Origin: a virus
DNA: 64,000 nucleotides
Reading direction: 5' to 3' (one strand)
Virus record (IMG/VR): IMGVR_UViG_3300005436_000501
Span: 63,095 to 127,094 of that record
Shown here: positions 8,785 to 63,299 of the stretch, one piece after another
How the letters are laid out: every line of letters starts with the position of its first letter
How positions within the stretch are numbered: the first letter of the stretch is position 1
Notes under the pieces: model-generated
The model's input: only the letters and a program-made list of their open reading frames with translations
Database searches by the model: none
Told to the model about the DNA's origin: nothing
Program-made: the position numbers and the translations under genes

Positions 8785-11682
8785 TCAGTTGCCGATGCCG
8801 GCGAGTGCGAGGTTGTTGCGGGAGTTGCGCTGCTGGTAGCGCAGCACCTCCGTGCGTACGACCTTCGCGATCCCGGCGTCGGAGTGCACGGCGCCCTGCA
8901 CGTTGACCACGACGATCACGCCGTTGCCCGCGGACGTGCCGCCGCCGACACCGGACCCGGCCAGGTTCAGCCCGGCCGTGGGCGACCCGAACCCGCGCAG
9001 TGCCGCGTTGCCGAGGCCCGCAGTCGCGGCCTGCGCGGCACCGTGCATGGACGCGATGCCGTTGACGAGGCCCTGGCCGATGTTCATGCCGAGTTCGTGG
9101 AAAACAGTCGAGGGAGAGTGCGCGCCGATCAGGGACTTGAATCCACCGACAATCTTGGAGCCCACGGACTTGACCGCGTCCCAGGCGGCGGACGCCATGC
9201 TCTCCACGCCGTGGACCAGGCCCATGATGAGGTCCTTGCCCGCTTGAAACAGCCAGCTGCCCGCATCCTTGAAGAAGCTGACGATCGCACTCCACACGGC
9301 CTTGATCGCGCCGACGATGCCGCTCACCGCGTCCTTGATCGCGCCGATGAAGCCGTCCCAGATGGCTTTGACCGCGCCGAGCACGGTGCTCTTGATGTCG
9401 CCGAGTACGGAGGTGAAGATCCCCTTGATGTCGTTCCACACGGTCACGACAAGGTTCTTCACGTCGCCCCAGAGCTTGCCCCATTGGCCGGTGACCAGAT
9501 CCGCGAAGATCTTCAGCACGCCCTTGATCAGGTCGAGGGCGGTGTTGACGACCCCGGTGATCACATCCCACGCGGCCTTGAAGATCCCTGCGACGACGTC
9601 CCACGCCGCCTTGATCACGCCGGTGATGATCGAGAGCGCGCCCTTCACGATCCCGGAGATGAAGTCCCATGCGGCCTTGACGATGCCCTTGATCAAGTCC
9701 CATGCCATGTGGAAAACGCCTTGCACGACGTCCCATCCGGCACGCACGACGCCCTTGACGATGTCGAGGTAGCCGCGCACGAGACCAGAGATGAAGTCCC
9801 AGGCGGTCTTTACCAGGCCCACGATGTGGTCCCAGGACTGAGCGAAGAAGTCCTCGATCTGCGAGAGGTGGTCCGAGATCAGCGACACGAGCTTGCCGCC
9901 GGTCGCGTTCCAGATCGTGGCCAGGCTGCCCCAGATCGACGACAGGTCGCCGGAGATCTTGTCCCACTCGGCGGTGATCGGCCGGGTCAGCCTGTCCCAG
10001 GTGTCCTTGATCCAGGTGATGGCCTTGCCGCCGGTGCCGTCCCAGATCGCCTTCAGGCCCGCCCACTGAGTCTTGAAGAACCCGGAGATGTCGCCCCACA
10101 CACGCTTGAACGCGCCCGACACGTCGTCCCACACGTGCTCAAGGAAGTGCGCGACGTCGGCGCTGATCCTCTTGATCTCGCCCCAGACCGTGCTCCAGTG
10201 CTTGACAAGCTCGACGATCCCGATCGTGATCAGTGCTATCGCGGCGACGATGGCCGCCGCGATCCACACGATCGGGTTCGCGAGCAGCACCGCGTTCCAC
10301 TCGATCGTCGCGATCGTGGCGGCGGTCAGCCCGACAACCAGGGCGCCGAGCGCGACACCGAGCCCGAGCAGCACGACCTTGTGTCGGCCGAGCCACGCCC
10401 CCGCGGTGGTGATCCAGCCGATGAACTTCTGCAGAACCGGGATCAGGACATTGCCGATCTTCACGCCCCACACGTCCAGGGCCGCGCCGATCTGCTTGAT
10501 CTGCTGCCCGAACTGCGCCTGCTGCGCCTTCCACGCCTCCTGCGCCTGCGCCGCCCTCGACGCGGCCGTCCCGTACGCGTCCGTCTTGGTCTTGAACCGG
10601 TCCATCTCGCCGAGCAGCGTCATCATCGTGCCGCTCGACTTGCCGCCCCCGAACATCGCCGACAGCGCCGCGGACTGCTTGACCGCGGCAGAGCCGGACG
10701 TCTCCAGGTTCGTCTTGAACTGCGCGAGCAGTGTGGTCTGCTGGTCGAGCGGGACACCCATGTCGGTGAGCGACGCCGAGTAATTCTTGAGCTCGGCCTG
10801 CTGCTCGACGAGCGAGAGCTTCATGGCCTTACCGGCCGGATACGTCTTCTCGAGATGCGCCTTGAGGTCCTCGAGCGCCGCGGACAGCCCGCCGGGGCCG
10901 CGCATGTCCTGCGCCATCTGCCGGCTGCTCATGCCGATGGAGTTGTACGCGTCCTGCGCCTTCTGCGTGGGCGCGGACATCATCGAGAACGTCATGCCCA
11001 GGCGCGTCGCGGCCTCGTTCGCGGGAGTGACGTTGTCGGTCAGGGTCGCCAGCGCCGCGCCCACGTCCTCGAACGACAGTCCGGCGGCGGCGGCCTTGGG
11101 CAGGATCCCGGTGCCGATCGCTTCGGCGAGCTGCTGCATCTTCATGTCGCCCATGCCGACCGTGGTGTTGAGCAGGTTCCCGGCGTCGGCGGCGTCCTTG
11201 ACGCCCTTGATCTGGCTCGCCATCACGCCGACCACGGCCTGCGCGGTCGTTTCGAAGTCGGACTGGCCGATCTGTGAGAGCTTCGAGGAGGCGGTGAGGA
11301 TGTCCATGGCCTGAGCGCCGCGGAACCCGGCGGACTCGATGTGGTACAGGCCTTCGGCGAGGGTCTCGGGTCCGATGCCGACAGCGGGCGCCAGGGCGAG
11401 CACGGAGCCCTTGAGCTTGTCGACCTCCTGCTGGGAGGCGCCGGCCTGGGTATGGACCATCTCCATGGCCTGGTCGAAACCGGTGGCCATCTTTACCGAC
11501 TCGTAGCCCACCCCGACGGCGGCGACGCCGATACCGAGCAGCGCGACCTTCCCGAACGCGCCCGCCTGCTCCATAGACGTCTTGGTGGCGTCCATCTCGC
11601 CGCGCGCCTCGCCCATCGCCGCCTTGAAGCCGGTGATGTTGCCGAGCAGATACGCCACAGTCGGAGGCAAGAATCCCGCCAT
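8785..11682 (-). CDS. Tail tape measure protein
   Basis: 965 aa; TP901-type core (FDQAM...AEGLYHIESAG...AATRL), ANPIVW, periodic W/F repeats, HSPSTVF. Confidence 0.93.
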   Translation of the reverse strand: MAGFLPPTVAYLLGNITGFKAAMGEARGEMDATKTSMEQAGAFGKVALLGIGVAAVGVGYESVKMATGFDQAMEMVHTQAGASQQEVDKLKGSVLALAPAVGIGPETLAEGLYHIESAGFRGAQAMDILTASSKLSQIGQSDFETTAQAVVGVMASQIKGVKDAADAGNLLNTTVGMGDMKMQQLAEAIGTGILPKAAAAGLSFEDVGAALATLTDNVTPANEAATRLGMTFSMMSAPTQKAQDAYNSIGMSSRQMAQDMRGPGGLSAALEDLKAHLEKTYPAGKAMKLSLVEQQAELKNYSASLTDMGVPLDQQTTLLAQFKTNLETSGSAAVKQSAALSAMFGGGKSSGTMMTLLGEMDRFKTKTDAYGTAASRAAQAQEAWKAQQAQFGQQIKQIGAALDVWGVKIGNVLIPVLQKFIGWITTAGAWLGRHKVVLLGLGVALGALVVGLTAATIATIEWNAVLLANPIVWIAAAIVAAIALITIGIVELVKHWSTVWGEIKRISADVAHFLEHVWDDVSGAFKRVWGDISGFFKTQWAGLKAIWDGTGGKAITWIKDTWDRLTRPITAEWDKISGDLSSIWGSLATIWNATGGKLVSLISDHLSQIEDFFAQSWDHIVGLVKTAWDFISGLVRGYLDIVKGVVRAGWDVVQGVFHMAWDLIKGIVKAAWDFISGIVKGALSIITGVIKAAWDVVAGIFKAAWDVITGVVNTALDLIKGVLKIFADLVTGQWGKLWGDVKNLVVTVWNDIKGIFTSVLGDIKSTVLGAVKAIWDGFIGAIKDAVSGIVGAIKAVWSAIVSFFKDAGSWLFQAGKDLIMGLVHGVESMASAAWDAVKSVGSKIVGGFKSLIGAHSPSTVFHELGMNIGQGLVNGIASMHGAAQAATAGLGNAALRGFGSPTAGLNLAGSGVGGGTSAGNGVIVVVNVQGAVHSDAGIAKVVRTEVLRYQQRNSRNNLALAGIGN

Positions 11683-12806: not shown

Positions 12807-13820
12807 TCACACATACGTCGAAGCGGCAATGGCGTTCTGGAGGCTGAGCGTCGCCGGCCCGTAGCCGCCGCTCGTGCCGATGTTCGTGGTGTTCAGCACG
12901 CACTCCCCAGTGGCGTCGAACATGATCGCCTCGGAGCCGAAGTTCGGCTTGGCCTCGGTGAACGCGGCCTGCTGCATGTCGACCTGCACCACCAGGGCGT
13001 TCGACAGGGTCAGGCCGTTGTTGAGGATGAACTGGATCTGCGGCTGGGTGTTGTTGCGCATGTACGTCAGCGGCGACTCGTCAGCGGCGACGAAACTCAG
13101 CTTCCAGTCCACGGTCAGGCCGCCGCGCTGGATGATGTACGGGTTCTGCGAGTTCTGCGCGGTGAAGTACGGCTTGAGTGCCCGCTTGAAGTTGAACTCG
13201 CCGCTCGCGCACGAGAGCACCGGTGCGCCCACGACCGTGCCGCCCACGCCGAGCTGCGACTGCCACGACGGCAGCGGCTTGGCCGTGGTGAACGTCGCCG
13301 TAGGGGTCGCCGCGGCGACATTGCTGATCCAGGACGCGGCCTTCGCCGTGTACGTGAGCAACTCGCTCTCGGCGTTGAACTTGAGCCCCACCTCGGACAC
13401 GCACGTGCCGGAGAACTGCCGGGCCTGATGGGTGGGCTCCGCCATGTAGTACTGCGTCACCGTGTGCGTCGTCGGCTGGCCGCCGCCGGTGTTGAGCAGC
13501 GAGAATTTGTGCGTGAACGGGGCGCTGGCACCGGTGGTGTCGTCGGCGCCGAACAGGTTGCCGATCAGGTATCCGAGTTCGTCGGCGAATACCGGCCCCT
13601 CGAAGTCCAACTCGCCGAGCTGGACGCCCTGGATGATGCCGAACGCGTCGTCGGCCATCACCCCGCGCAGGCCCTTGTCTTTCAACCAGGTGGGCTTGTC
13701 GTTCCAGTCGAATTTCGTGACCGGCATGAACGCCGCCGGCGCGACCGGGATGCCGGGCGTCACGTCCCGGGCGAAGCCGATGAACCGCTTGATGCTCGGG
13801 AACGTGCTGGGTGCGGGCAT
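12807..13820 (-). CDS. Major tail (tube) protein
   Basis: 337 aa; PFTHKF, TTHTV, FSGTCVSE; canonical position. Confidence 0.8.
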   Translation of the reverse strand: MPAPSTFPSIKRFIGFARDVTPGIPVAPAAFMPVTKFDWNDKPTWLKDKGLRGVMADDAFGIIQGVQLGELDFEGPVFADELGYLIGNLFGADDTTGASAPFTHKFSLLNTGGGQPTTHTVTQYYMAEPTHQARQFSGTCVSEVGLKFNAESELLTYTAKAASWISNVAAATPTATFTTAKPLPSWQSQLGVGGTVVGAPVLSCASGEFNFKRALKPYFTAQNSQNPYIIQRGGLTVDWKLSFVAADESPLTYMRNNTQPQIQFILNNGLTLSNALVVQVDMQQAAFTEAKPNFGSEAIMFDATGECVLNTTNIGTSGGYGPATLSLQNAIAASTYV

Positions 13821-17526: not shown

Positions 17527-20327
17527 CTATCCGGCGGAAACGCCCGAGATGCAGCCGTTCCAGCCGGGTGCGTAGCATAGGTGAGTACCGAACCAGTAGC
17601 TCGACGACTCGTACGCGAACTGCGTCACGGGCCAGTCGATCCCCATGAAGTCCTGCACGTTGCAGATCGCCCACACGTTGCTGACCTGCGAGTCGGGGAT
17701 CGGCAGGGTGTCCGAGATGATCGGACACACGCCCTGCGGCAGCCACGGCGAGACTTCCATCTCGACGTGCTTGCCCGTGGTCTCGTTCACGATCGCGACG
17801 GCGACCGAGCCGAGCGTGACCCCGGCGACCTGGTCCTGGGTGACCTGCAGGATGTAGTTGTTGGACTCGCCGGTCTTGAGCGTCGCGGACAGCTGCTTGC
17901 GGTCGGCGCCGTTGAACATGACCCGGTCGGGGTCGGCCTTGACCGAGTTGTAGAGGCTGGCGAACGCGGTCTGGAACTCGCCGCCGGGGGTCGCGGTGCC
18001 GAACGCCGAGTTCAACTTGACGTTGTAGCCGGACGAGGTGCCCATCGTCCAGGCGAGGATCCCGTCGTACCCGGCGGAGTACGCGGAGGTGTCGGCGGTG
18101 GGCGGGTTCGCTCCCGCCACCGGGATCGCGCCCTGCAGCACGATGCCGGTACCGCCAGCGCCGCCGCCGTTGACGGACTGGTTCGGGAACCGGCCGTACA
18201 GGAAGAACGCGGAGTTCGCCGGCTGGGAGGCTCCCGTCCCGATGTACACCTTGTATCCCAGCGCCGCCGGGACGTCGGTCAGGCGCAGCACCACGTTGTG
18301 GCCCGCGGTCGGCGCGATCGTGGCGACGGTGGAGACGACGGACTCGCCGAACGCGCCCGCGTCGGAGGTGACGTACACGTAGATGTTCGTGGTGTACCCG
18401 GTCAGGGCGGCCTGCCCGGTGCCGAGGGTGTTGTCCACCAGCGACGTGCCGGTGGGCGCGGCGAGAGCGCCGGCGTACCCGGACGCGGTGCCGCGGCCCA
18501 TGATCAGCATCCGCTCCTCCATCAGCTTGCTGGCGTACAGCAGGCTGGTGCGCGAGAGCTGGCGGATGTCCTGATACCCCTGGCCAGCATATTGGGCGGA
18601 CCAGGTGACCTCGTCGGACATCGAGAACTGCGAGTGCGGCAGCACGACGTCGTAACCGGCGTACGCGATCTTCGGGCCGCGCGCGTAGTACAGCGAGTTG
18701 CTCGCGCCCGACGGGGCGAAGTTCGTCTGGCTGCTGTCGGCGATACCGGGGTGGATGTTGCCGACGCCGCCGGTGCCGGAGCCGGTGATCCCGGAGATCA
18801 CCTTGAACCGGTGCGAGGTGCCGAAGCCCTTGATCCGCGGCGTGCGGTTGCTGACCGGCGTCGGACGGGGAGCGAGGAACTTTGCCAGATTTGTTACCGA
18901 GCCCCGTCGGCTCGGGCCGCTTCATTTCTGCGCGGCTCTGCATGTCTCCATGCAGCTCGGACTATGCCACCACCTGCTGCTTCCGGTGATCCTTCCACCG
19001 GATGTGGACCGGATTGGACTGAGGGTTCTTCCTCATCCAAACCCCGTAGCACTTCTGGGTGCAGAACTTCTTCTCGTAGGTCCGGTTCGTCCGGTGCTCG
19101 ACGAAGACATTTCCGCAGCCGGTGCAGGTGTGCTCGATCTGAGCACCCTTCCAGCTTGCGTTGTCCTTGCCGCGCCCACTCCGACGGATGTCAGCGATCG
19201 GATCCGTGTCGGGTGTCAGTCCAACGGCGTCCGCGACCGACCGGACGCAGGCGTCCGGGTCAGCGTTGATCTGGGTTCCGTTGAACCGGAAGACCTTGTA
19301 GCCCACATCGGCGAGTTCGGCGTCGCGCACTGCGTCGAGCGCCTTGCGACGCTCGAGTCGGTGCGACAGTCCGTCGGCCTCGATGATCACGGGAGCCTGA
19401 AGAAGCTCGATATCGACGACATAGCGGCCGAGGTGGCATCGCTGTGTCGTGAACGAGAGTCCTGCACGTTTGAGTGCTCCATGGAGCAGCTTTTCCAGCG
19501 GAGAGTCCGCCGACGAGCCTCGCAGCTCATCGAATCGCTTAAGCGGACTCACTCGGTGCGCTTCCTTGAACTCCGGAGTGTTGCATGCGGCCCTGTGTGC
19601 AGCCTTGCGCTCGTCACTCCACACCCACGTTCGCCCAGTCATGGGCTTGCGGGCGATACCAAGGCGCTTCATCGCGTTCTCTACCGGCTTGCGTGAGCAG
19701 CCGTACAGTTCCGCGACAGCGCGTTGCGGCCCGAGTCGGTCGTAATCCGCCTGGAGGTTGCTCCAGTCCAACAGGTGCCCCGCATCTAGTCTCTACGGAC
19801 TCGCCCCTACGAACGGGGATTGCCTCGGCGTTTTCCACATGACCTGGACGCTCTAAGTATATTGCGCCCAGCGAAGGACTTTCACCGATACAGCGGGGTT
19901 CTCAACTGCGCATCACTGCGCAGCGGCCCTACGAAAACGAAGGCGCCTCGAGGTCGAACGCGACGAGGCCAGTTCCAACGGGGGACGTGAGGTTGATGTC
20001 CTTGACCAGGTCCGGCTGCTGCCCCTTGAGGGCGTCCAGCGCCGCGGCCACCGACGCGACGGCGTCCGGGGACATCGACTTGACCAGGTCCGGCGAGCCG
20101 AGCGCCTTCTGCAGGTACTCGATCGCGTTGGTCGGGCGCGGGCTGAAGTCGATCGGGTGGCCGGCCTTGAAGCTGGTGACGATCTCCTCGCGGGTCAGTT
20201 CCCGCTCGGGAACGCACTGGATCGACTTGACCAGTTCGTCGAAGCGGATGGAGACCTCGGCCTTGGACAGCTTCGCGGACTCCGGGGACTCACCGAACAT
20301 GAGCTCGACGTTCGTGGGCAGAGCCAT
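17527..20327 (-). CDS. Major capsid protein, spliced: exon 1 20327-19941, exon 2 18885-17527 (~581 aa)
   Basis: Joining exons gives in-frame ...VAFDLEAP|AKFLAPRPTPVSNRTPRIKG...; follows protease/scaffold; RBS AAGGAG. Confidence 0.85.
18886..19940 (-). mobile_element. Group I self-splicing intron
   Basis: P1 exon GCCU/GGGC with U.G at 5' splice site; P3 CCCCGC/GCGGGG; GUAGAGACUA (19796-19787) and AUAGUCC (18965-18959) forming P7; P8 CACCUGUUG/CAGCAGGUG; P9 hairpins; terminal G. Confidence 0.92.
18962..19771 (-). CDS. Intron-encoded putative homing endonuclease (HTH + Vsr/DUF559-like nuclease + Zn finger)
   Basis: SPLE...Q...GRYVVDI....IIEADGLSH...D..RD..L...GYKVFRF; CTGC...FCTQKC; located in P8 loop. 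Confidence 0.8.
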   Translation of the reverse strand: MDWSNLQADYDRLGPQRAVAELYGCSRKPVENAMKRLGIARKPMTGRTWVWSDERKAAHRAACNTPEFKEAHRVSPLKRFDELRGSSADSPLEKLLHGALKRAGLSFTTQRCHLGRYVVDIELLQAPVIIEADGLSHRLERRKALDAVRDAELADVGYKVFRFNGTQINADPDACVRSVADAVGLTPDTDPIADIRRSGRGKDNASWKGAQIEHTCTGCGNVFVEHRTNRTYEKKFCTQKCYGVWMRKNPQSNPVHIRWKDHRKQQVVA

Positions 20328-20387: not shown

Positions 20388-22448
20388 CTATGCGGCGGCC
20401 TTCGCGAGCAAGGCGCGGGCACGGTCGCGGTAGCCCTGGGCGAGGTCCCGGTTCGCCGAGAACATCTCGGCCTTAGCCAGGAGTTCGTTCGCCTGGGCGT
20501 GCAGCGTGTCGGCGTCGCTCTTGGTCGCTGCGCCCTGCTGGGCGGCGGTGCGAGTCAGGGCGGGCCCGCCGGGCTGCGGCAGGTCCTTGACGGCCTCGAA
20601 TGCGCTGGCCTTCGCGAGGTCCACCGTGAGCGCCGTGAGGCGCTCCTCGTCGGCGGCCCTTGCCTCTGCCACGGCGCTCTTCACGAGGTCTTCGAGTTCT
20701 GCCTTGGTCATGCCCTGCGGCTCGGTGGCCGCAGGAGTCTCGGGTGTGTCGTTCTTCGTAAGGGCTGCGGCGACGGCGGCCTTGACGAGGTCGGCAGCCT
20801 CGGCCTTGGTGAGCAGCTGCTCGACCTCGGGCGCGTGGGCAGCGTCGGGCGCGTCTGCCTTCGCGGCGGTCTTGGCCGCTGCCTTCTTCTTTGCCGCAGA
20901 CTTCTCGTCGTCGCCCTCGGTGTCATCCTCTGCGTCGGCGCCGTCGGCGCCGTCGGCGCCTTCCCCGTCGGCCGCGTCGGCAGCGCCCTTCTTCTTGAAC
21001 GGCGGCGCGAGGTTCGGGTTCTTCTTCCCGTCCGCCTTGAGCAGGTCCTCGCCGTCCGCCGGGGCGTCGGAGAGCATCATCACCGCGTCGTCCACGCCGG
21101 ACTGCTCGCTGCGCTCGTTAGCCTGGAACCACTTCAGTGCCCTTACGGCATCGAGCAGCAGCGCGATATCGCAGGCCTCGTTCAGGTTGCCCATCGCGAG
21201 CGACTCGGCCTCGGACACGATCAGCTTCGCGATCGCGGCGATGGCGTCCTGCGCGCCCTGGATGTCGTCAGTCTCGTCCACGCCGCCGGCCGCTCCGCCG
21301 CCGTCGTCGGCCTTGGCGAGGTCCGGGACGAGCGCACGCACGTCACGCAGCACCGCCTCGGCCTTCTCGATCGCCTCCGGGTCGGCGTCAGCCTTCGCCG
21401 CGTCGTCCTTGAGCGAGCCGTCGGCATTCCAGTTCTCGGGCACCATGCCCTCCAATCCGAGGGCCTGGGCCCGCTTGCGGATGTGCTTTCTCACGTCGTC
21501 GTGGTCGGCGTTGCCGCGACCCACGGCCTTGATTGCGCGGCGCAGATCGGCCTTCGTCTTGATCACATAGGAGGGGTCGCCCTTCGCGTTCGGCATCGCC
21601 TGACCCGCCGCCAGCGCCTGCCGCTTCTCCTCGGCCGTGTACGCCTTGTCGAGCGACTCGTAGGTCTGCGCCTTGTAGGCGTCCGCCGCCTCACGTACCG
21701 CGCCTACCAGTGCCTCGTCGCTCACGAGACGCCCGGACACAGTCACGTTGACCACCACGGGCGCCGCGGGGGAGTCCGTCTTGGCGGTCTCAGCGTCCTG
21801 CTCGGCTACGGCCTGAACCGAGGCCCCGGCCCCGGCGAGGTCGGCAAGCGCCTGCTTTACGGGGGAGGCGAGGCGGTCGAAGAGTTCGGGCGGCAGTCCG
21901 TAGGTCGGGGACGCGACGCGCTCGAGCGTGGGCTCCTCGACGATCTGGAGTTCCCCGGCGCCATCGGACTTCGCGAGCGGCAAGCGCCAGTGATCTGAAA
22001 TCGTCGCCGTGGGCAAGCACGGGCTATCTACGAGGCTTGATTCACATATCCTGCCAGCGACGACGGTCCCGCCTGGCGCGTCGGCCTTGGTGTAGTCGAG
22101 GCGGTGGCCGCGCACGCCGATGGAGAAGCCGTTGAGGACACCCTCTTCGACCTTCTCGACAGCCTCGCGGTCGACGACCTTCGCGCCGATGTACCAGCCG
22201 TCGTCCTTCTCCTCGAGTTCGATGGCCTTGCCGACGGCGCGTCGATGATCATGGCCCTCGCGGATGTTACCGGCGCGGGTGAACCACTCGGGGACGGCAG
22301 TCCTGAGCCAATCCGCTGACATGCGCTGCTGGTCATGGTCGAGATCCGTGCCGGTCAGCTTCCCGTACACGTACAGGTGGCCCGTCGTCGGGTCCTTCTC
22401 GCGCTTCGTGATCGGCGCGTAGAGCTCCAGCACCGCAGGCAGCGCCAT
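20388..22448 (-). CDS. Prohead protease/scaffold fusion
   Basis: NIREGHD...VGKA...VLNGFSIG...ESSLVDSP (HK97-type protease); long acidic Ala-rich C-terminus; RBS GGAGGAGG. Confidence 0.85.
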   Translation of the reverse strand: MALPAVLELYAPITKREKDPTTGHLYVYGKLTGTDLDHDQQRMSADWLRTAVPEWFTRAGNIREGHDHRRAVGKAIELEEKDDGWYIGAKVVDREAVEKVEEGVLNGFSIGVRGHRLDYTKADAPGGTVVAGRICESSLVDSPCLPTATISDHWRLPLAKSDGAGELQIVEEPTLERVASPTYGLPPELFDRLASPVKQALADLAGAGASVQAVAEQDAETAKTDSPAAPVVVNVTVSGRLVSDEALVGAVREAADAYKAQTYESLDKAYTAEEKRQALAAGQAMPNAKGDPSYVIKTKADLRRAIKAVGRGNADHDDVRKHIRKRAQALGLEGMVPENWNADGSLKDDAAKADADPEAIEKAEAVLRDVRALVPDLAKADDGGGAAGGVDETDDIQGAQDAIAAIAKLIVSEAESLAMGNLNEACDIALLLDAVRALKWFQANERSEQSGVDDAVMMLSDAPADGEDLLKADGKKNPNLAPPFKKKGAADAADGEGADGADGADAEDDTEGDDEKSAAKKKAAAKTAAKADAPDAAHAPEVEQLLTKAEAADLVKAAVAAALTKNDTPETPAATEPQGMTKAELEDLVKSAVAEARAADEERLTALTVDLAKASAFEAVKDLPQPGGPALTRTAAQQGAATKSDADTLHAQANELLAKAEMFSANRDLAQGYRDRARALLAKAAA

Positions 22449-22463
22449 GTCGCCTCCTCCGGG

Positions 22464-22498
22464 CATGCGAAAGGGCCGCACCGACCGGTGCGGCCCTT
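22464..22498 (-). terminator. Hairpin + TTTCGCATG upstream of protease gene
   Basis: AAGGGCCGCACC-GGTC-GGTGCGGCCCTT-TCGCATG on minus strand. Confidence 0.5.
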
Positions 22499-22517: not shown

Positions 22518-25500
22518 TCAGCCGTCCGTCGCGCCGACGCCGGCGCGGTCCGCCGGGGCGATCTCCGCGAGCGAAACGGTCACCGGCATGGGCGCGCACC
22601 GGCACCGAGTATGTCCAGGTGGTGATAAATCGCCGCTCTGGAAAGCCGCTCCGAGCGGCACGGCGCCCTCGGCCTCGTTCGGTTCGCAGACGCTCGAACA
22701 CACGCGATCATCATCAGCCGAGGCCCAGTAGGTGGCCTCAATGCCGTTGGCCCGGTACGTGTCCATCGACGCGGCGCTCGTTGCTCGCGCCAGTTCCGTG
22801 ATCGCGACCGCTTCGGCCCACGCGGGGTCATCGAGGATGCCGCGCAGTACCCCGGCCAGGGTGGCGGCCGAGTCTCCGCGCGCCAGGGCGTCGGACAGCG
22901 CCTTGGCCAGCTTGTCCAGGCGGTTGCTGGCGATCGACTTGATCGTGATCCCGGCCCGGTCGAGCAACAGCGCTAGTCCGTTGCGGCCGTTCTCGTCCAG
23001 GACCAGCCGGGCGGCGTCCACGTCTCCCGGGACCCACCGCGACCAGTCCACGCGCGCGCTGCCGGTCAGGACGGCGGTCGCGGACAGGTCCCCGATGACG
23101 TAGCCCTCGGTCCACAGCCCCACGATCAGGCCAGCGAGTACCACGGTCAGGTCCACACCACGTTCGGCGAGCCAGGAAGCGGGGTCCTGGGTGTAAGTGT
23201 CGGGGCCGGGCGGGTCGTCGGTGAAGTCGTTGGGCAGGTCGGGTTCGTCGGCCTTTCCGAGCATGGCGATGCGGTGCGCGATCCACGCCTCGGCAAGTGC
23301 TCGGGCATTCAGGGCGCCGCGCATGGCTGTGCGGATGCGCGGCTTCCAGGCGGCGGCGGTCTGCTTGTCTCGGTCCCAGCCCGGCCAGTGCGGCCGGTCC
23401 GGGTCACCGGCTTTTGGGACTTTGCCGACACCGCCCGCGGGCGCGAACACGATGCGCGGGTCGGCGAACATGTCGTCGGGCGCGTCGGCTTTGGTCAGGA
23501 TCCGGGCGTGGAAGGCGCGGCCGGGCTTGGGGTTGCGGCGCGCCCAGTTGCGATAGGCGGCGATCTCCGCCTTGACGGACTGCGTGGTGGCTGGCGTCGG
23601 CGCGCCCTCGGACGCGTCCGACTCTTCGCCGTCACCGTCGTCGCCCTGGTCGTCCTCGAACTGGTCGGGCACGCCGTCCGCGTTGTCGTCCTTGTTCGGG
23701 GGCGACTCCAGGGGCGTAACCGTCTCCCCTGCGGGCGCCAGCTTCGACGCGCCCTCCAGGAAGATCACGCCGCGGCTGGTCACCACGATCGGCATGTCCG
23801 CCTCGGGGAACGCATACCTCGGCAACCCGAGCCGGTCGCGGTCCTCGTTGTACGTCATCCGCGCGCTCTTCACGCGGGTGTCGGCAACCGCGTCGGCCGC
23901 CGCTTCGTCCTCGTCCTCGAGTCCGAGGATCTTGAATTCGAGTTCGCCGGGCATCCCCAGGTGCCGCCGGGAGATCCCGGTGACCAGTCCCTGGATCCAC
24001 CGGTACGTCGGCATGGTGGCGTTGCGGTCCTTGATGTCCGCCTGACCCTCGTGGTACCCGCTGGAGCCTAGACCGCCGGTCTCGGTGAAGTTGAGCTCCG
24101 CGATGGTCGTGGCGAAGTGCGCGGCGAGCTGCTTGAGCAGGAACAGGTCGTACTCGGGCTTGTAGCGCTCGGCGACGTCCGCGTGGGATTCGAGCTCGAA
24201 CCCGGGCGGCAGGATCCGCATCCGGTGCCGCTCGAGCGTCTGCCCGGACCAGGCGTCGTTCAGGGCGGTCTCGTACTCCAGGACCTGCTGCGGCGTCCAT
24301 GAACTGGTGGCGTTGTTGCGCAGCAGCCCGGCGGGCACGGTGCCGTCGGTGAACTCGGCGCGGATCCAGGCGCGCCGGCGCAGCCACACGTCGAGGTCCT
24401 CGAGGCACTGCTCGACCGCGCTGAAGCCGTAGAGGGTCTCGGTGCGCACGTTGCGCCGCTTGTAGATCAGGGTGTCGGGCGCGTAGCCGTTGATGACCTT
24501 GCCCTGGTCGTCCACGTCTGCGACGTACTCGCCGCGCGGAAAGCCCCACAGGATCTGCTGGTACGCCGGGTTGGGCGGCAGGGGCTTGCCGCCGCGGTAG
24601 TCCCGCAGCACCTTAATGGTGTTGCCGCACCAGGCCGGCTTGCCGTTGCGCCGCACGTACAACACCTCGTTCGGCACCGACACGCAGAACACGTCGCCGT
24701 CATACGGCACCCCCTCGACACGCCACGTGCGAGCTTGCGTGTTCGACAGTCGGACCGAATACTTTGGCCGCATGTTCCCCGAGTGGATAACACGTCCATC
24801 ACGCATCACCGAGTCCGCGGTGGCCACGCTACGACTCACGTTGGCGCACTTGCCGATCTTCTGCGCGATCTCCTGTAGATCGTCAGCCATGCGGGGGCTG
24901 CACGTCGTGATGGTCTGACGATTCCCGTCGTAGCAGCCATCCCCCAGCATGTAGAAACGCCAGAAGATCTCAAGCTGGCGCGCAGACATGTTCTTGACGA
25001 TGTCCGGGACATGCTTCTCGTGCGCTTTCCCGAACTGCGCAAGGTAGGAGTGGAGGCACTTCCGGCTGATGACGAACGACTTGCCGGTATGGCATACCTC
25101 GCGGCCGAAGATCCGCATGAGCAGGTCGCGGAACGGGCCGTATCCCTTCGACGCGGGGTCTTGCGTGATGCAGACGGCGTCCTTCTTCGCGCCGGTAACG
25201 CAGCCCTCGGAGAGGTACGCCCCCATGAAGGCCGCGAAGTCGTCGCCGCTGCACTCGAACGGCAGCGACGTGGTACGTCCAGAGGCGGCCAGTTTGAACT
25301 CGGCCAGGTCGGCGCCGATCCAGTGCGATGTCATCGGGATCTTCGACGCTTGGCCATTGCCGAATTCAGCCAACTCGGCTGCCGTGACAATTGCCTCGCC
25401 GCGATCCTGCCAGCGGGAGCCGCCCAGCGCGCGGGGCTTGGCGGTCACGAGCATCCGATGATTGCCCGTGACGAGGACATCCAGGGACTTCGACGTGAAG

Positions 25501-26381
25501 TGGTAGAGGTCGCCCTTGTGCGGGGCGCGGTGGAAGTACGTGGCCTGCTGCCACTCGAAGTCGTGCGTCTTGGGGTTGCGCGTCGCGAAGTCATCGTCGA
25601 CGCGGGTGTCCGCGAAGCGGAGCCAGCCGCGTCGCGTCAAGACTTCAGTGTCGTCGGAGTAGCAGGACCCGTCCAATATCTCTAAAGCGTACAGGTCGCC
25701 GCCGTACGTGCGCCTGGGATAGATCGCTAGGGCGTCCAACACGAGGTGCTCTTCGAGGAGTTTTCCGATCCAGTCGGTCCAGTCCTCGTCCTGGCCGGGG
25801 TCGGGCTTCTCCCAGAACGCGGAGCAGCGGGCGATCTCGGGTCCGAGGCGCCTGCGCAGGTCCGCCTCGACGTCGGCACGCGCCGAGGAGGGACTGTCGG
25901 CCTGCGCTTTCGCAACGGCCGACTTGGTGATGGTGATCGCCCATTCGAGGGTGGAGATCTCGTCCTTGCGGATCTGGATACAGCGCCGCGGGATCCCGCC
26001 GGCCGCGGCGGCGTCGCGCAGCACCTTCCACGGCACGAGCCGGTCGGTGACGCCGGGCAGGTTCGTGGAGACGGGGTATTCGCCGAAGCGGGGTTCGGGC
26101 CGGCCGGAGTCGCGCCGTACGGGGTCGATCGCGGCGGGGATCAGGGCGAGGCCGGGTCCGAACGCGACCTGCGGGTCCAGGCGTGGCAGCGGGTTGAAGC
26201 CGCCGCTGGTGGCCGGGGCGGTGTTCACGGCGGCGAGCAGCGCGGCGACCTGCGTTCCGGTGTAGGTGGTCGCTCCGGGTCCGACACCAGGCACCATAGC
26301 CTTGGTCATTTCGGCTTCGGTGCTGCGGCGCACCTGGTAGTGCTGGTTGCCGCCCTTGCGGTTGCGGTTGCGGCGACTCAC
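22518..26381 (-). CDS. Portal protein fused to MuF-like head morphogenesis domain, with intein
   Basis: YGFSAVE, FTDGTVPAG, MTYNEDRDRLGLP portal motifs; C-terminal ITELARA...W....DDRVC...C...PPGHTRCRC. Confidence 0.88.
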   Translation of the reverse strand: MSRRNRNRKGGNQHYQVRRSTEAEMTKAMVPGVGPGATTYTGTQVAALLAAVNTAPATSGGFNPLPRLDPQVAFGPGLALIPAAIDPVRRDSGRPEPRFGEYPVSTNLPGVTDRLVPWKVLRDAAAAGGIPRRCIQIRKDEISTLEWAITITKSAVAKAQADSPSSARADVEADLRRRLGPEIARCSAFWEKPDPGQDEDWTDWIGKLLEEHLVLDALAIYPRRTYGGDLYALEILDGSCYSDDTEVLTRRGWLRFADTRVDDDFATRNPKTHDFEWQQATYFHRAPHKGDLYHFTSKSLDVLVTGNHRMLVTAKPRALGGSRWQDRGEAIVTAAELAEFGNGQASKIPMTSHWIGADLAEFKLAASGRTTSLPFECSGDDFAAFMGAYLSEGCVTGAKKDAVCITQDPASKGYGPFRDLLMRIFGREVCHTGKSFVISRKCLHSYLAQFGKAHEKHVPDIVKNMSARQLEIFWRFYMLGDGCYDGNRQTITTCSPRMADDLQEIAQKIGKCANVSRSVATADSVMRDGRVIHSGNMRPKYSVRLSNTQARTWRVEGVPYDGDVFCVSVPNEVLYVRRNGKPAWCGNTIKVLRDYRGGKPLPPNPAYQQILWGFPRGEYVADVDDQGKVINGYAPDTLIYKRRNVRTETLYGFSAVEQCLEDLDVWLRRRAWIRAEFTDGTVPAGLLRNNATSSWTPQQVLEYETALNDAWSGQTLERHRMRILPPGFELESHADVAERYKPEYDLFLLKQLAAHFATTIAELNFTETGGLGSSGYHEGQADIKDRNATMPTYRWIQGLVTGISRRHLGMPGELEFKILGLEDEDEAAADAVADTRVKSARMTYNEDRDRLGLPRYAFPEADMPIVVTSRGVIFLEGASKLAPAGETVTPLESPPNKDDNADGVPDQFEDDQGDDGDGEESDASEGAPTPATTQSVKAEIAAYRNWARRNPKPGRAFHARILTKADAPDDMFADPRIVFAPAGGVGKVPKAGDPDRPHWPGWDRDKQTAAAWKPRIRTAMRGALNARALAEAWIAHRIAMLGKADEPDLPNDFTDDPPGPDTYTQDPASWLAERGVDLTVVLAGLIVGLWTEGYVIGDLSATAVLTGSARVDWSRWVPGDVDAARLVLDENGRNGLALLLDRAGITIKSIASNRLDKLAKALSDALARGDSAATLAGVLRGILDDPAWAEAVAITELARATSAASMDTYRANGIEATYWASADDDRVCSSVCEPNEAEGAVPLGAAFQSGDLSPPGHTRCRCAPMPVTVSLAEIAPADRAGVGATDG
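24621..25664 (-). mobile_element. Intein with LAGLIDADG endonuclease (348 aa)
   Basis: N-terminus CYSDDTEVLTRRGW; block B VTGNHRM; FMGAYLSEG and YMLGDG; C-terminus YDGDVFCVSVPN...WCGN followed by Thr. Confidence 0.92.
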
Positions 26382-27891: not shown

Positions 27892-28115
27892 CAGGCGATC
27901 GGGACTCCGTTGAGCAGCCCGCTGGCGCACACGGCCTCGTGGGCGTCGCGGGTGCGCAGGTCCCGGGCCAGGGCGTGGGAGTCGTTCGAGGTCCAGTGCG
28001 CGCCACAGAACTGGTGACCGCCAGCGCGGCACAGCAGCACCCGGAACAGTCCGTTCGTCGCACCGAAACTGCCGCCGAGCCGTCGCGGCCACAACACCCC
28101 GGACCACCACCTCAC
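27891..28115 (-). CDS. Small hypothetical protein
   Basis: GTGA overlap with terminase stop; C..C...H...C. Confidence 0.4.
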   Translation of the reverse strand: MRWWSGVLWPRRLGGSFGATNGLFRVLLCRAGGHQFCGAHWTSNDSHALARDLRTRDAHEAVCASGLLNGVPIA

Positions 28116-29608
28116 GCCGCTGCGGTGAGCCCGCGCAGCCACTCCATCGCCTGGTCCGCTGACCCGTGACCCCCGAGGAGCCGGGACACCGCCTGCGACA
28201 TCGTATCGACCTGATCGTCGTGTACCGCATTCGGGAAACCCGCGTGCTCCTCGATGAACGCCGCCACCCACGGCGCCGACGACGGGTCCGGCAGATGCAC
28301 GTTGTGCGCCTCGACGAACGGCGCGACGGCCGAGGCGCGCGCGTACTTGGAGTCCTTCGGCGTCACCGCGATCAGGCCGGGAACCCGCGAACGCAGTTGT
28401 GCGATCACGGCCGGTCCGTTCGCTTTGTCCTCGACGAGTTTCCCGTTGGCCTGTGGCCACTTCGCCGTCAGCGCCTCGAACGCCTTGCACGTAGCGGGGA
28501 AGTCGAGGCGGTCGCGCACCTGGTCCAGCAGGTACACGTCTGCGCCGCGCCGCCCCCACACCTGCCCGACGACATAATCCGAAACCTTTGTGTCCTTGAA
28601 CGCCATATCCCAGGACTGGACGAGTTCGTCCATGCTGTCCGCGCGCCATGCGCCGTCGCTGCCGCAGCGGGCCAGCGCAGGACTGTAGTACTGCCAGTCG
28701 CCCCGTTTGAACAGCGTGCCCTCGGCCGGCGCGGGCCGTCCCTGGTAGAGGGCGTTCCAGACGCGCGCGCCGACCGCCGTCTTGATCTGCTCCCACTGCT
28801 CGCGGGTTCGCTTGCGTGCCGAAGGAAGGAACTCGCCGACCGGTCGTCCGAGCGGATCGTGCTGCCCCTTGTTCGGGTCGTGGTCCGCTTGAGCCGGGAT
28901 GTTGATGACTCGCCAGCGGTGGCCGTCCGCGGCGGCGAGCATGCGCCCGGCCAGGTCGTCCTCGTGCCAGCGGGTAAGGATCAGGATGACCGGCGCCCCG
29001 GGCGCGAGGCGCGTGTTCCCGACCGCGAGCCAGAACTTCCAGACCCGCTCGCGCCAGGTCGCCGACTGGGCCTGCGCCTCGTCCTTGATCGGGTCGTCGA
29101 TATAGAGGATGTCGGCGGGGCGCCCGGTCAACCCCGCGGTGATGCCGACGCTGCGCACACCGCCGCGGCGCCCGGCGATACGCCACCTGCGGGCCGCGCC
29201 GTTGTCCGGGGCGATACGCAGACCGAGGTCGAGTTCGTCGTCTTCGCCGCTATTGGAGGTGATGTGGTTGCGGATGTTGCGGCCGAACTCGTCCGCGAGG
29301 TCCTGTCCATAGGAGACGATCGCGATGCGCAGGTCCGGGTTGCGGGTGAGCATCCACAGCGGGCCCACCGTGGTGACGCGGGTCGATTTGCCTTCCTGCG
29401 GCGGCATGCTGATGATCAGTCGGTCGCAGCGACCTTCCGCCACGTCCACCAGTGCGGCGTCGATCAGGTCGAGTGCCCGGGTCTGGACCGTGCTCGGGTC
29501 GATCGCACGGGCGAGGATCCCCGGGGTGACCCACGGCTGAACCTCGCTGCGGTCGCACTCTTCGTCGATGTGCTCCGCTGTGCGCTCAAGCAGGTCCATC
29601 CCGGCCAC
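28112..29608 (-). CDS. terL: Terminase large subunit
   Basis: MPPQEGKST Walker A; LYIDDPIKD; TRWHEDDLAG; SWDMA; VEDKANG; FPNAVHDDQVD. Confidence 0.95.
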   Translation of the reverse strand: MAGMDLLERTAEHIDEECDRSEVQPWVTPGILARAIDPSTVQTRALDLIDAALVDVAEGRCDRLIISMPPQEGKSTRVTTVGPLWMLTRNPDLRIAIVSYGQDLADEFGRNIRNHITSNSGEDDELDLGLRIAPDNGAARRWRIAGRRGGVRSVGITAGLTGRPADILYIDDPIKDEAQAQSATWRERVWKFWLAVGNTRLAPGAPVILILTRWHEDDLAGRMLAAADGHRWRVINIPAQADHDPNKGQHDPLGRPVGEFLPSARKRTREQWEQIKTAVGARVWNALYQGRPAPAEGTLFKRGDWQYYSPALARCGSDGAWRADSMDELVQSWDMAFKDTKVSDYVVGQVWGRRGADVYLLDQVRDRLDFPATCKAFEALTAKWPQANGKLVEDKANGPAVIAQLRSRVPGLIAVTPKDSKYARASAVAPFVEAHNVHLPDPSSAPWVAAFIEEHAGFPNAVHDDQVDTMSQAVSRLLGGHGSADQAMEWLRGLTAAA

Positions 29609-62765: not shown

Positions 62766-63299
62766 ATGGCCCACGCGCTCGACACGACCCGCGACGAATG
62801 GCAGGCCGACGCCGCCCGCTCCGTACGCCTGTCCTGCTACCCCTACCAGCGCATCCCCGCCGACCACCCCGTCCACGCCTGGTCGCAGGCGGCGCAGGAC
62901 CTCGGCAAGGACCTGGCCGAGCGCACCCGCGCCGCCCTGACCGATCGGCTGCGCGAGAGCACCGGCCACTACGCCACCGCCGTCCGCTCCCGCCGGCTGA
63001 CGCTCGGCCGTCAGGCTCGGGCGGACGAGTGGGGCGAGGTCGCCGCGACGATCCGCCGCGCACTGAACCACGAACTCGTCAGCACCGACACCGCTGCACT
63101 CACCTACGACCTGCTCGCCCTCGACCGACTGGCGCGCGAGCACACCGCCGCGATCCACGCCCTCGGCGAGCAGCTTACCTCCCAGGCCATCGAACGCGAG
63201 ACCGCGCGCCGCGCCACCGACGACGCGTGGCAGCGGGAACTCAAGCGCCGCGAGGAGATCAAGGCGTACCTGACCGGAAGCACGAGGCTCGCCCGGTGA
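62766..63299 (+). CDS. Hypothetical helical protein
   Basis: RBS GAGGGG. Confidence 0.6.
   Translation: MAHALDTTRDEWQADAARSVRLSCYPYQRIPADHPVHAWSQAAQDLGKDLAERTRAALTDRLRESTGHYATAVRSRRLTLGRQARADEWGEVAATIRRALNHELVSTDTAALTYDLLALDRLAREHTAAIHALGEQLTSQAIERETARRATDDAWQRELKRREEIKAYLTGSTRLAR

Follow-up and report, generated by a model that had tools for sequence, protein, structure and literature searches.

The DNA analyzed here is a 64,000-nucleotide (nt) stretch of a virus (IMG/VR record IMGVR_UViG_3300005436_000501, positions 63,095 to 127,094), referred to as the window at its full length. On its minus strand, a head gene was found in two pieces separated by a 1055-nt insert (Table 1). The upstream piece, exon 1, ends in ...GAG GCG CCU with its last base at 19941, and the downstream piece, exon 2, opens with GCA AAG UUC at 18885, so that 129 and 452 codons make up a protein of 581 amino acids (aa) once the 1055 nt are removed. 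The insert contains an open reading frame (ORF) for a putative endonuclease. The initial annotation had read it as a group I intron that splits the major capsid gene and encodes a Vsr/DUF559-type endonuclease. This overall reading was supported, and the insert was confirmed to be real beyond chance, as the covariation among its relatives lies far above shuffled and slid controls. In our interpretation, which we give a probability of roughly 0.88, a mobile group I intron with predicted splicing occupies 18886–19940 and interrupts the major head (capsid) gene of a soil actinobacterial prophage.

Of 7999 candidates scored in a homologue search that used exon 2 alone as the query, 2812 proteins reached E ≤ 0.001. 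Among the 120 best homologues, 116 were 557–587 aa long, and four were exon-2-sized (438–453 aa). The best homologue, P0001, consists of 581 aa and is 96% identical. P0001 and six further full-length homologues, which are 61–84% identical to P0001 and, where named, belong to Actinacidiphila, Streptomyces or Kitasatospora, aligned end to end over both window pieces and without a gap across DLEAP/AKF (the slash marks the junction in amino-acid motifs). Since this alignment neither loses nor gains a column at DLEAP/AKF, the insertion is exact to the base. The in-frame excision of 1055 nt restoring EAP/AKF, which the initial annotation had proposed, was thereby borne out together with its boundaries, U19941 preceding the intron and G18886 terminating it; all seven full-length homologues ran continuously through the junction, so that the discontinuity which the initial annotation had set as a refutation did not occur. 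The frame of exon 1 closes within the intron as UCG UUU UCG UAG, of which UAG lies at 19931–19929 (intron positions 10–12). Gene callers see three separate ORFs at this locus, as had been anticipated. The exon-2-sized database proteins P0002, P0027, P0057 and P0062 cover exon 2 only and are probably other intron-split alleles shortened by gene callers; three of the four are unnamed, and one is labeled “hypothetical protein”. A single 2472-nt contig is the source of both P0057 and an endonuclease homologue, P0128.

Table 1. Features of the interrupted gene, its intron and the neighboring head and tail genes in the window. Helix strands are given in RNA letters.
Feature	Coordinates	Strand	Description
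Probable capsid gene, exon 1	19941..20327	-	129 aa, MALPTN...FDLEAP; last base U19941; matches residues 1-129 of uninterrupted 581-aa homologues
Group I intron	18886..19940	-	1055 nt; terminal omega-G at 18886
Probable capsid gene, exon 2	17527..18885	-	452 aa, AKFLAPRPTP...; phrog_13692 7e-70; matches residues 130-581 of homologues
Putative homing endonuclease ORF	18962..19771	-	269 aa in L8; N-terminal helix-turn-helix (HTH); DUF559/Vsr-like nuclease ~88-186; C-terminal CxxC...CxxxC
P1	19926..19944	-	exon GCCU (19944-19941) with guide GGGC (19929-19926); U19941·G19929 wobble; intron UCG/CG lengthens the stem
P2	19906..19923	-	7-bp hairpin, GUGA (GNRA) loop; 7/7 pairs compensatory, 94.8% of cells paired
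P3 5′ strand CCCCGC	19893..19898	-	partner GCGGGG 19778-19783; 6/6 pairs compensatory, 99.5% paired
P4-P5-P5a-P6	19797..19888	-	P4 UCGGUG/CGCCGA; P5 UCC/GGA; P5a 8 bp; P6 GG/CC and CCCC/GGGG
P7 5′ strand GACUA	19787..19791	-	partner UAGUC 18960-18964; pseudoknot with P3
P8 5′ strand CACCUGUUG	19769..19777	-	9 bp; last three bases are the endonuclease TTG start 19771-19769
P8 3′ strand CAGCAGGUG	18979-18971	-	with the CACCUGUUG strand encloses the ORF
J8/7 GUGGCA	18970-18965	-	between P8′ and P7′
P7 3′ strand UAGUC	18964-18960	-	UAG (18964-18962) is the ORF stop
P9, P9.1, P9.2 and tail	18886..18955	-	P9 7 bp, GAGA loop; P9.1 GCCGC/GCGGC; P9.2 CCGAGCC/GGCUCGG; GUAACAA tail
697-aa protein	20388-22481	-	upstream of capsid gene; N-terminal match to HK97 prohead protease is weak (E 3.5e-4) and under the cut-off
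Portal-MuF fusion	22518-26381	-	1287 aa; portal ~598-851 (below Pfam cut-off), Mu-F-like 1157-1263
Large terminase	28112-29608		first in gene order of head module
Tail tube	12807-13820		after capsid gene in gene order
Tape measure	8785-11682		after tail tube in gene order

The ORF is flanked by structured RNA, 169 nt upstream and about 79 nt downstream, in which helices were assigned by direct reading and by folding the 5′ part together with the 3′ part as two strands at minimum free energy (MFE). This fold recovered P1, P2, P3, P4, P5, P5a, P6, P8, P9, P9.1 and P9.2, and P7 is absent from it because P7 is pseudoknotted. P1, P3, P7, P8, P9 and the terminal G, all listed in the initial annotation, were thus found, and P2, P4, P5/P5a, P6, P9.1 and P9.2 were added to them. 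GNRA loops cap P2 and P9, and the intron tail GUAACAAAUCUG terminates at G18886; a tail of the form GUAACAA-N3-4-G is conserved over 48 3′ halves of related introns. The ends of the ORF also lie in the core where they had been placed. Its TTG start (19771–19769) is the final three bases of the 9-bp 5′ strand of P8, while at the other end the codons Q-Q-V are P8′ and TAG (18964–18962) is the first three bases of P7′.

Relatives of this RNA were sought in 71 metagenome-contig loci, which were found by a scan with an alignment of endonuclease homologues. By using the 169-nt 5′ part of the window, nhmmer gave 39 near-full-length matches in the 71 loci (32 distinct). After one iteration, the 3′ part matched 115 times at E ≤ 1, and 47 of these matches were distinct and full-length. 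The MAFFT alignments consisted of 33 rows for the 5′ halves and 48 rows for the 3′ halves. In the 5′ halves, standard pairs occupied 86.6% of cells, compared with 36.6–50.3% when partners were slid by 1–3 columns, and the covariation score was 0.408 against 0.07–0.13 for the slid partners, a value reached by none of 500 shuffles. The 3′ halves gave 78.1% paired cells against 34–45%, with a score of 0.585. Among individual helices, P4 was 100% paired with two compensatory pairs and P5 was 97% paired in the 33 5′ halves; P9 was 97.3% paired with compensatory change at 6 of its 7 pairs and P9.1 99.6% paired with 5 of 5 in the 48 3′ halves. Because the ORF separates the two strands of both P7 and P8, a script was used to match the 5′ part of each of 21 introns with its 3′ part; the resulting counts keep two rows that are mis-registered by one base. 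P7 was paired in 100 of 105 cells, compared with a maximum of 97 over 1000 shuffles of partners among introns, and P8 in 131 of 147 cells, compared with a maximum of 115 over 1000 such shuffles. The P7 variants across relatives were GACUA/UAGUC, GACUG/CAGUC, GAGCA/UGCUC and GAGCG/CGCUC. Altogether, P3, P4, P5, P7 and P8 were 89–100% paired with compensatory changes. The guide also covaries with the exon across insertion sites (GCCU/GGGC, CCCU/GGGG, CCGU/GCGG and GGGU/GCCC). Of the 33 sequences, 31 have a P1 of at least 4 bp with U·G; shuffled upstream sequence gave 12.8 on average and 23 at most. Some of the automatic P1 picks may be a few bases off.

A second copy of the intron was identified among viral contigs. 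These contigs were scanned with the capsid alignment, which gave 187 relatives, and among the best 80 that were kept, the 5′ and 3′ profiles of the intron family matched one, L088. Its intron lies at the same place (...GAGGCGCCU/UCGUUUUCGUAGGGCC...), and the two loci are 81% identical over 1262 nt. The ribozyme core of L088 has changed very little. Compensatory differences occur in P2 (U-A to C-G), in P6 and in P9.1, where each of the five pairs is altered and pairing is retained throughout. Its 269-aa ORF is intact, with the same TTG start and the same QQVVA end before the stop, and the ratio of nonsynonymous to synonymous substitution rates (dN/dS) between the two ORFs is 0.255. The compensatory changes and the intact ORF at this ratio therefore show that selection acts on the RNA structure as well as on the encoded protein, and they speak against a decayed relic. 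Exon 1 ends in CCU in both intron-bearing alleles. This codon was considered as an exclusive mark of such alleles and was rejected, as 13 of the 77 uninterrupted alleles in which the motif was present (2 of 79 were without it) also have CCT, alongside 40 with CCG, 13 with CCC and 11 with CCA. The U at the end of exon 1 is needed for P1, yet it is not diagnostic of the intron.

Recognition by the Rfam group I model (RF00028, Intron_gpI), which had been suggested as a check of the initial annotation, was obtained for ORF-less family members and for neighboring introns in related loci, and not for the window itself. The ORF-less relative L047:3503-3738 matched RF00028 end to end with 41.6 bits (E 1.7e-9), and the ORF-less L045, which occupies the same capsid site as the window intron, gave 19.3 bits (E 0.0078). 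Four other ORF-less neighboring introns passed the gathering cut-off with 55.2–70.8 bits (20 of the 71 fetched loci were scanned), and their 3′ ends (J8/7-P7′-P9-P9.1) align with the 3′ part of the window. The Rfam alignments assign the helices as the reading by eye did. The helix order is the same as in RF00028, and J6/7-P7 “AGACUA”, J8/7-P7′ “AUAGUC” and the GNRA hairpin of P9 in the ORF-less relatives align to the model. In P4–P6 and P7, the sequence of the window intron is presumably similar to IC3, the small bacterial type of the Azoarcus tRNA intron. By this structural and comparative evidence, the window element is a group I intron.

The ORF inside the intron matched Pfam DUF559 (PF04480) over residues 93–180 at 5.5e-14 (52.4 bits against a cut-off of 20.6), together with a sub-threshold match to MTES_1575. 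The 69 homologues of the endonuclease are all metagenome-derived. When the single endonuclease was used as a query, it gave no relatives in viral contigs or genome contigs; the alignment-based metagenome scan succeeded. The TTG start is supported because the N-terminus MDWSNLxADYERLG is conserved in the family. In L016, L022, L024, L026 and L031, none of ATG, GTG and TTG occurs where the DWSN... frame usually starts behind P8, and the sequence reads ...CUGCCGACUGG... instead; these ORFs may have a non-canonical or upstream start, or they may be decaying. Among 34 aligned homologues, no variation was seen at E93, D120, E131, D133, H137, D146, R149 and D150, and a CxxC...CxxxC module follows these residues. 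In an AlphaFold model with a mean predicted local distance difference test (pLDDT) value of 84.9, the N-terminus forms a helical HTH, the nuclease domain is of the alpha/beta kind, and the C-terminal module is small and made of beta structure. With VIA-align, residues ~85–186 matched the DUF559 structure 3hrl (Z 11.3, root-mean-square deviation (rmsd) 2.0), the catalytic domain of the homing endonuclease I-Bth0305I, 3r3p (Z 11.3, rmsd 2.5, 93 of 97 residues), and Vsr (1cw0, Z 10.3; 1vsr, Z 9.3), and Foldseek gave template-modeling (TM) scores of 0.71–0.75 normalized to 3r3p. Residues 1–45 matched HTH domains at Z ~5, a range that the tool calls common. The presence of a DUF559/Vsr-type enzyme in the intron, as initially annotated, was thus upheld by the Pfam match to DUF559 and by a fold of the Vsr type (3r3p, 1cw0 and 1vsr). 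In sequence searches of the PDB, 3hrl was matched at 8e-8. The enzyme is filed under DUF559 and is not a demonstrated member of the I-Bth0305I sequence family. E93, D120, H137 and D146, which do not vary in the 34 sequences, are spaced 27/17/9, to be compared with 26/17/9 for the residues named in PMC3239194. We infer that the protein would work, by cleavage, like a homing endonuclease of the EDxHD/Vsr type.

The loci of these enzymes point to a wider family of introns in related capsid genes. A distant capsid homologue is present in 39 of 71 endonuclease loci, and the exon breaks in the metagenome capsids lie near residues 129/130, ~140, ~216, ~231 and ~250. The same intron type with its ORF occupies the same codon boundary in capsids that are only ~26–28% identical to P0001 (L003, LEAP/AKML; L011, L-A-P/SRLVYP), and this boundary is also occupied in L010 (FDLLAP/SRLIYP), L007, L004 and L009. 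One element at the same site in such diverged capsids fits homing or lateral transfer into a conserved target. Some loci are crowded. L016 (e.g., L016:170-2175) holds three intron cores within 2.2 kb; L047:2330-5585 and L045:1434-2000 are further examples among L003–L073, and two introns lie 11 codons apart in L045 and L009. L009:206-1652 with an ORF and L045:1433-1688 without one are the same intron at the same site, with 3′ regions identical over the compared stretch; the pair appears to record the gain or loss of an endonuclease in progress. We favor, with clearly less assurance than for the window intron itself, a radiating group I family with or without a DUF559-type endonuclease, which would occupy at least five positions in one capsid gene family, with at least three introns in some genes, two only 11 codons apart, and with ORF-bearing and ORF-less versions of one site as snapshots of the homing cycle. 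If this is true, DUF559/Vsr-like enzymes would be a major rather than a minor class of homing endonucleases in soil actinophages, and a heavy intron load would be tolerated by the most highly expressed phage gene.

Several observations weigh against the identification of a mobile capsid intron and have to be set beside the evidence above. The sequencing runs that contain the stretch include no RNA run, and no spliced read was found. Four runs were compared, of which X1, possibly the source sample, spans the whole stretch in one contig and the other three have short exon-like pieces only; joined exons were seen in none of them. RF00028 gave no match on the window at its gathering score, at E ≤ 10 over 18700–20100, or on the 5′ half alone, and the Rfam searches of the window returned only chance matches to small RNAs. 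We ascribe this to the 810-nt ORF, which splits the model, and to the P3–P6 half, which diverges from it. L047 and L045, which share the 5′ type of the window, also stay below the 50-bit gathering cut-off, including the 41.6 bits of L047 as the best relative of the same type. P10 is weak by eye, and column-wise confirmation was obtained neither for P5a and P6 (47–71% paired), whose length-variable stems were misaligned by MAFFT, nor for P9.2 (43% paired), which was likewise misaligned. For the enzyme, 3r3p was not matched in the PDB by the profile, by phmmer or by the single nuclease domain at E ≤ 1 and E ≤ 10, where 3hrl was the only match. For the host gene, the capsid protein matched no Pfam or NCBIfam family, and modeling of the 581-aa capsid homologue with AlphaFold reached a pLDDT of 45.8, too low for a fold search.

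The alternative that survives best, which we nevertheless consider unlikely, is that the intron splices and its ORF is not an active homing enzyme but a maturase, a nicking or defense-type nuclease, or an inactive passenger. Proteins of the DUF559 family are mostly uncharacterized, cleavage here is a prediction from the position of the intron and from its recurrence at the same site in diverged capsids, and ORF-less versions exist at the same site (L045 compared with L009). The single intron among the best 80 of the 187 viral capsid loci, which means limited spread among close relatives, also fits such a passenger. Set against this are the catalytic pattern that is invariant in the 34 aligned homologues, the purifying selection on the ORF, and the fold shared with I-Bth0305I, a proven homing enzyme; the recurrence of intron and ORF at one codon boundary in L003 and L011 is moreover what homing or lateral spread predicts.

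It is less likely still, and in our view quite improbable, that the element is a decayed relic that no longer splices, in which case the capsid gene would be dead and the prophage defective. The position within an integrated provirus would agree with a relic, as would the missing RNA evidence of splicing and the failure of RF00028 on the window. However, all core helices are intact, and L088 keeps them by compensatory change together with a full-length ORF, as described above. Neither exon is disrupted by a frameshift or stop, their identity to an uninterrupted allele is 96%, and the provirus record is rated 97% complete. As for an intein, a group II intron, an insertion sequence (IS) or IStron, or a free-standing endonuclease gene that divides the capsid into two separately translated subunits, the three ORFs seen by gene callers and the four exon-2-sized proteins among the 120 best homologues might be cited in favor, but we give this a negligible chance for several reasons: an intein is excluded by the in-frame stop just past the junction; neither a reverse transcriptase nor a transposase was found; structured RNA with group I covariation surrounds the ORF, and relatives of the intron match RF00028; and exon 2 lacks a start codon where it begins, and use of its first in-frame start would cost 28 conserved residues.

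For the mobile group I intron, which we thus prefer, the following mechanism can be proposed. The pre-mRNA would fold into the group I core, in which the guide GGGC and the exon end GCCU form P1 with its U·G pair, and P3–P7 would make up a pseudoknotted core braced by the GNRA loops of P2 and P9. Transesterification initiated by guanosine would then excise the 1055 nt and ligate ...GCGCCU to GCAAAG..., resulting in the 581-aa capsid frame. The UAG three codons into the intron would halt ribosomes arriving from exon 1; stops just inside an intron have been treated as an aid to folding (PMC3984707). The endonuclease most likely cuts intron-less capsid alleles near FDLEAP/AK, whereupon repair would copy the intron in (homing). 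The G-rich run six bases upstream of TTG is P3′, and with the start in P8 and the stop in P7′, the folded ribozyme should hide the initiation site. Conversely, a translating ribosome would unfold P8 and P7, which would make translation and folding mutually exclusive on one RNA molecule. ORFs that reach into an intron core are described as tightly controlled in PMC3984707. That the supply of capsid depends on splicing, and that translation competes with folding, as the initial annotation had suggested, are reasonable expectations from this arrangement.

The interrupted gene is probably the major capsid gene. In the head module, terminase is followed by portal-MuF, the protein with a weak HK97-protease match, the interrupted gene, tail tube and tape measure. 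Exon 2 matched phrog_13692 at 7e-70, beginning at profile position 48. A tblastn search gave the “major head protein” gene of Alicyclobacillus phage MMB025 (24.6% identity, E 5e-13), which adjoins portal and protease genes, and 12 of 30 matches in a protein atlas were clusters of the SU10-type major capsid (SU10_MCP) with a score of 0.96. When the capsid alignment was searched as a profile against the PDB, the matches were limited to weak immunoglobulin (Ig)-like ones (E ≥ 0.012) and one to an HK97 capsid (E 0.17). The label “major capsid” of the initial annotation was hence favored by synteny, the distant head-protein homologue and the SU10-type clusters, and received no help from Pfam or from the structure model. 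The only confidently modeled part is residues ~270–405 (window ~17650–18075, in exon 2), which is beta-rich with pLDDT 70–90; its profile matches to immunoglobulin variable domains are weak (E 0.012–0.1), and it may be an inserted Ig-like decoration domain. Exon 1 was modeled as mostly helical with low confidence, gave no tblastn match in the phage collection, and has no counterpart in the shorter phage homologues, as the phrog_13692 match from profile position 48 indicates. The intron may lie at the border of a scaffold/delta-like N-terminal domain and the capsid body. Among the neighboring genes, ~600 N-terminal residues of the portal-MuF protein precede its portal domain. The C-terminal part of the 697-aa protein is long, rich in Ala, Asp and Lys, and contains GADGADGAD repeats; this protein is possibly a protease-scaffold fusion.

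To our knowledge, few phage structural genes carry group I introns, and Vsr-fold homing endonucleases have one characterized member. The locus is a well-supported case of a capsid intron in a high-GC actinobacterial prophage, in which the most abundant virion protein would be made only after splicing. It exposes 69 related enzymes and dozens of ribozymes that are missed or split by Rfam, Pfam capsid families and gene callers; annotation pipelines will give a truncated capsid and a “very-short-patch-repair endonuclease”. The enzymes are candidates for new rare-cutting nucleases, and the overlap of the ORF with P8 and P7 offers a compact system for studying mutual exclusion of translation and ribozyme folding. 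Searches of the literature gave no intron-encoded DUF559 enzyme described by title or abstract, and a search for group I introns, capsids and Streptomyces phages gave none relevant by title; the main text of a 2025 paper on a group I intron database mentions none of EDxHD, Vsr, DUF559, phage and capsid. Phage capsid introns and Vsr-fold intron endonucleases are already in print, and these searches gave no description of their combination. The finding is robust and helps annotation, though in principle it is no surprise. The wider intron pattern across the capsid family is the more novel part.

Among known systems, heavy intron loads were reported in genes of gut jumbo phages, where the split genes named in the text are terL, nrdD and DNA polymerase, not capsid (PMC12880540). 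The enzyme is best compared with I-Bth0305I, which is encoded in the recA intron of Bacillus phage 0305phi8-36 and represents the prototype of EDxHD (PDB 3r3p), as defined by E170, D196, H213 and D222, with N208 at x and a spacing of 26/17/9 (PMC3239194). In both cases a phage group I intron encodes a nuclease of the Vsr fold with an N-terminal DNA-binding region of the HTH type, and the E...D...H...D spacing of 26/17/9 is close to the 27/17/9 of the window enzyme. The latter, however, belongs to Pfam DUF559, is closest to 3hrl, has a C-terminal Cys4 module and is not linked to I-Bth0305I by sequence searches; the host gene is recA in one case and the capsid gene in the other. The overlap of ORF and ribozyme resembles that of the T4 td intron and I-TevI, whose ORF also reaches core ribozyme sequence, such that its expression must be controlled to spare folding, and which likewise has an in-frame stop just inside the intron (PMC3984707). 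It differs in its GIY-YIG enzyme, host gene and intron subgroup, and regulation in the window is deduced from the overlap. The nearest precedent for the host gene is LittleE, a mycobacteriophage of Cluster J, in which the major capsid gene of an actinobacteriophage is split by an intron as it is here (PMC3706429); that paper also cites a capsid intron in the lactococcal phage Tuc2009. The splice of LittleE was demonstrated by reverse transcription PCR (RT-PCR) and N-terminal sequencing, whereas that of the window is predicted. Its endonuclease lies on the opposite strand and is described as HNH in a figure legend and as LAGLIDADG-like in the text, not as DUF559. The authors call the intron type “unclear, most likely group I”, whereas the core of the window intron is supported by covariation. 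The two are alike in that U ends exon 1, G ends the intron, and an endonuclease gene lies inside, and the capsid protein of LittleE depends on splicing, as that of the window presumably does.

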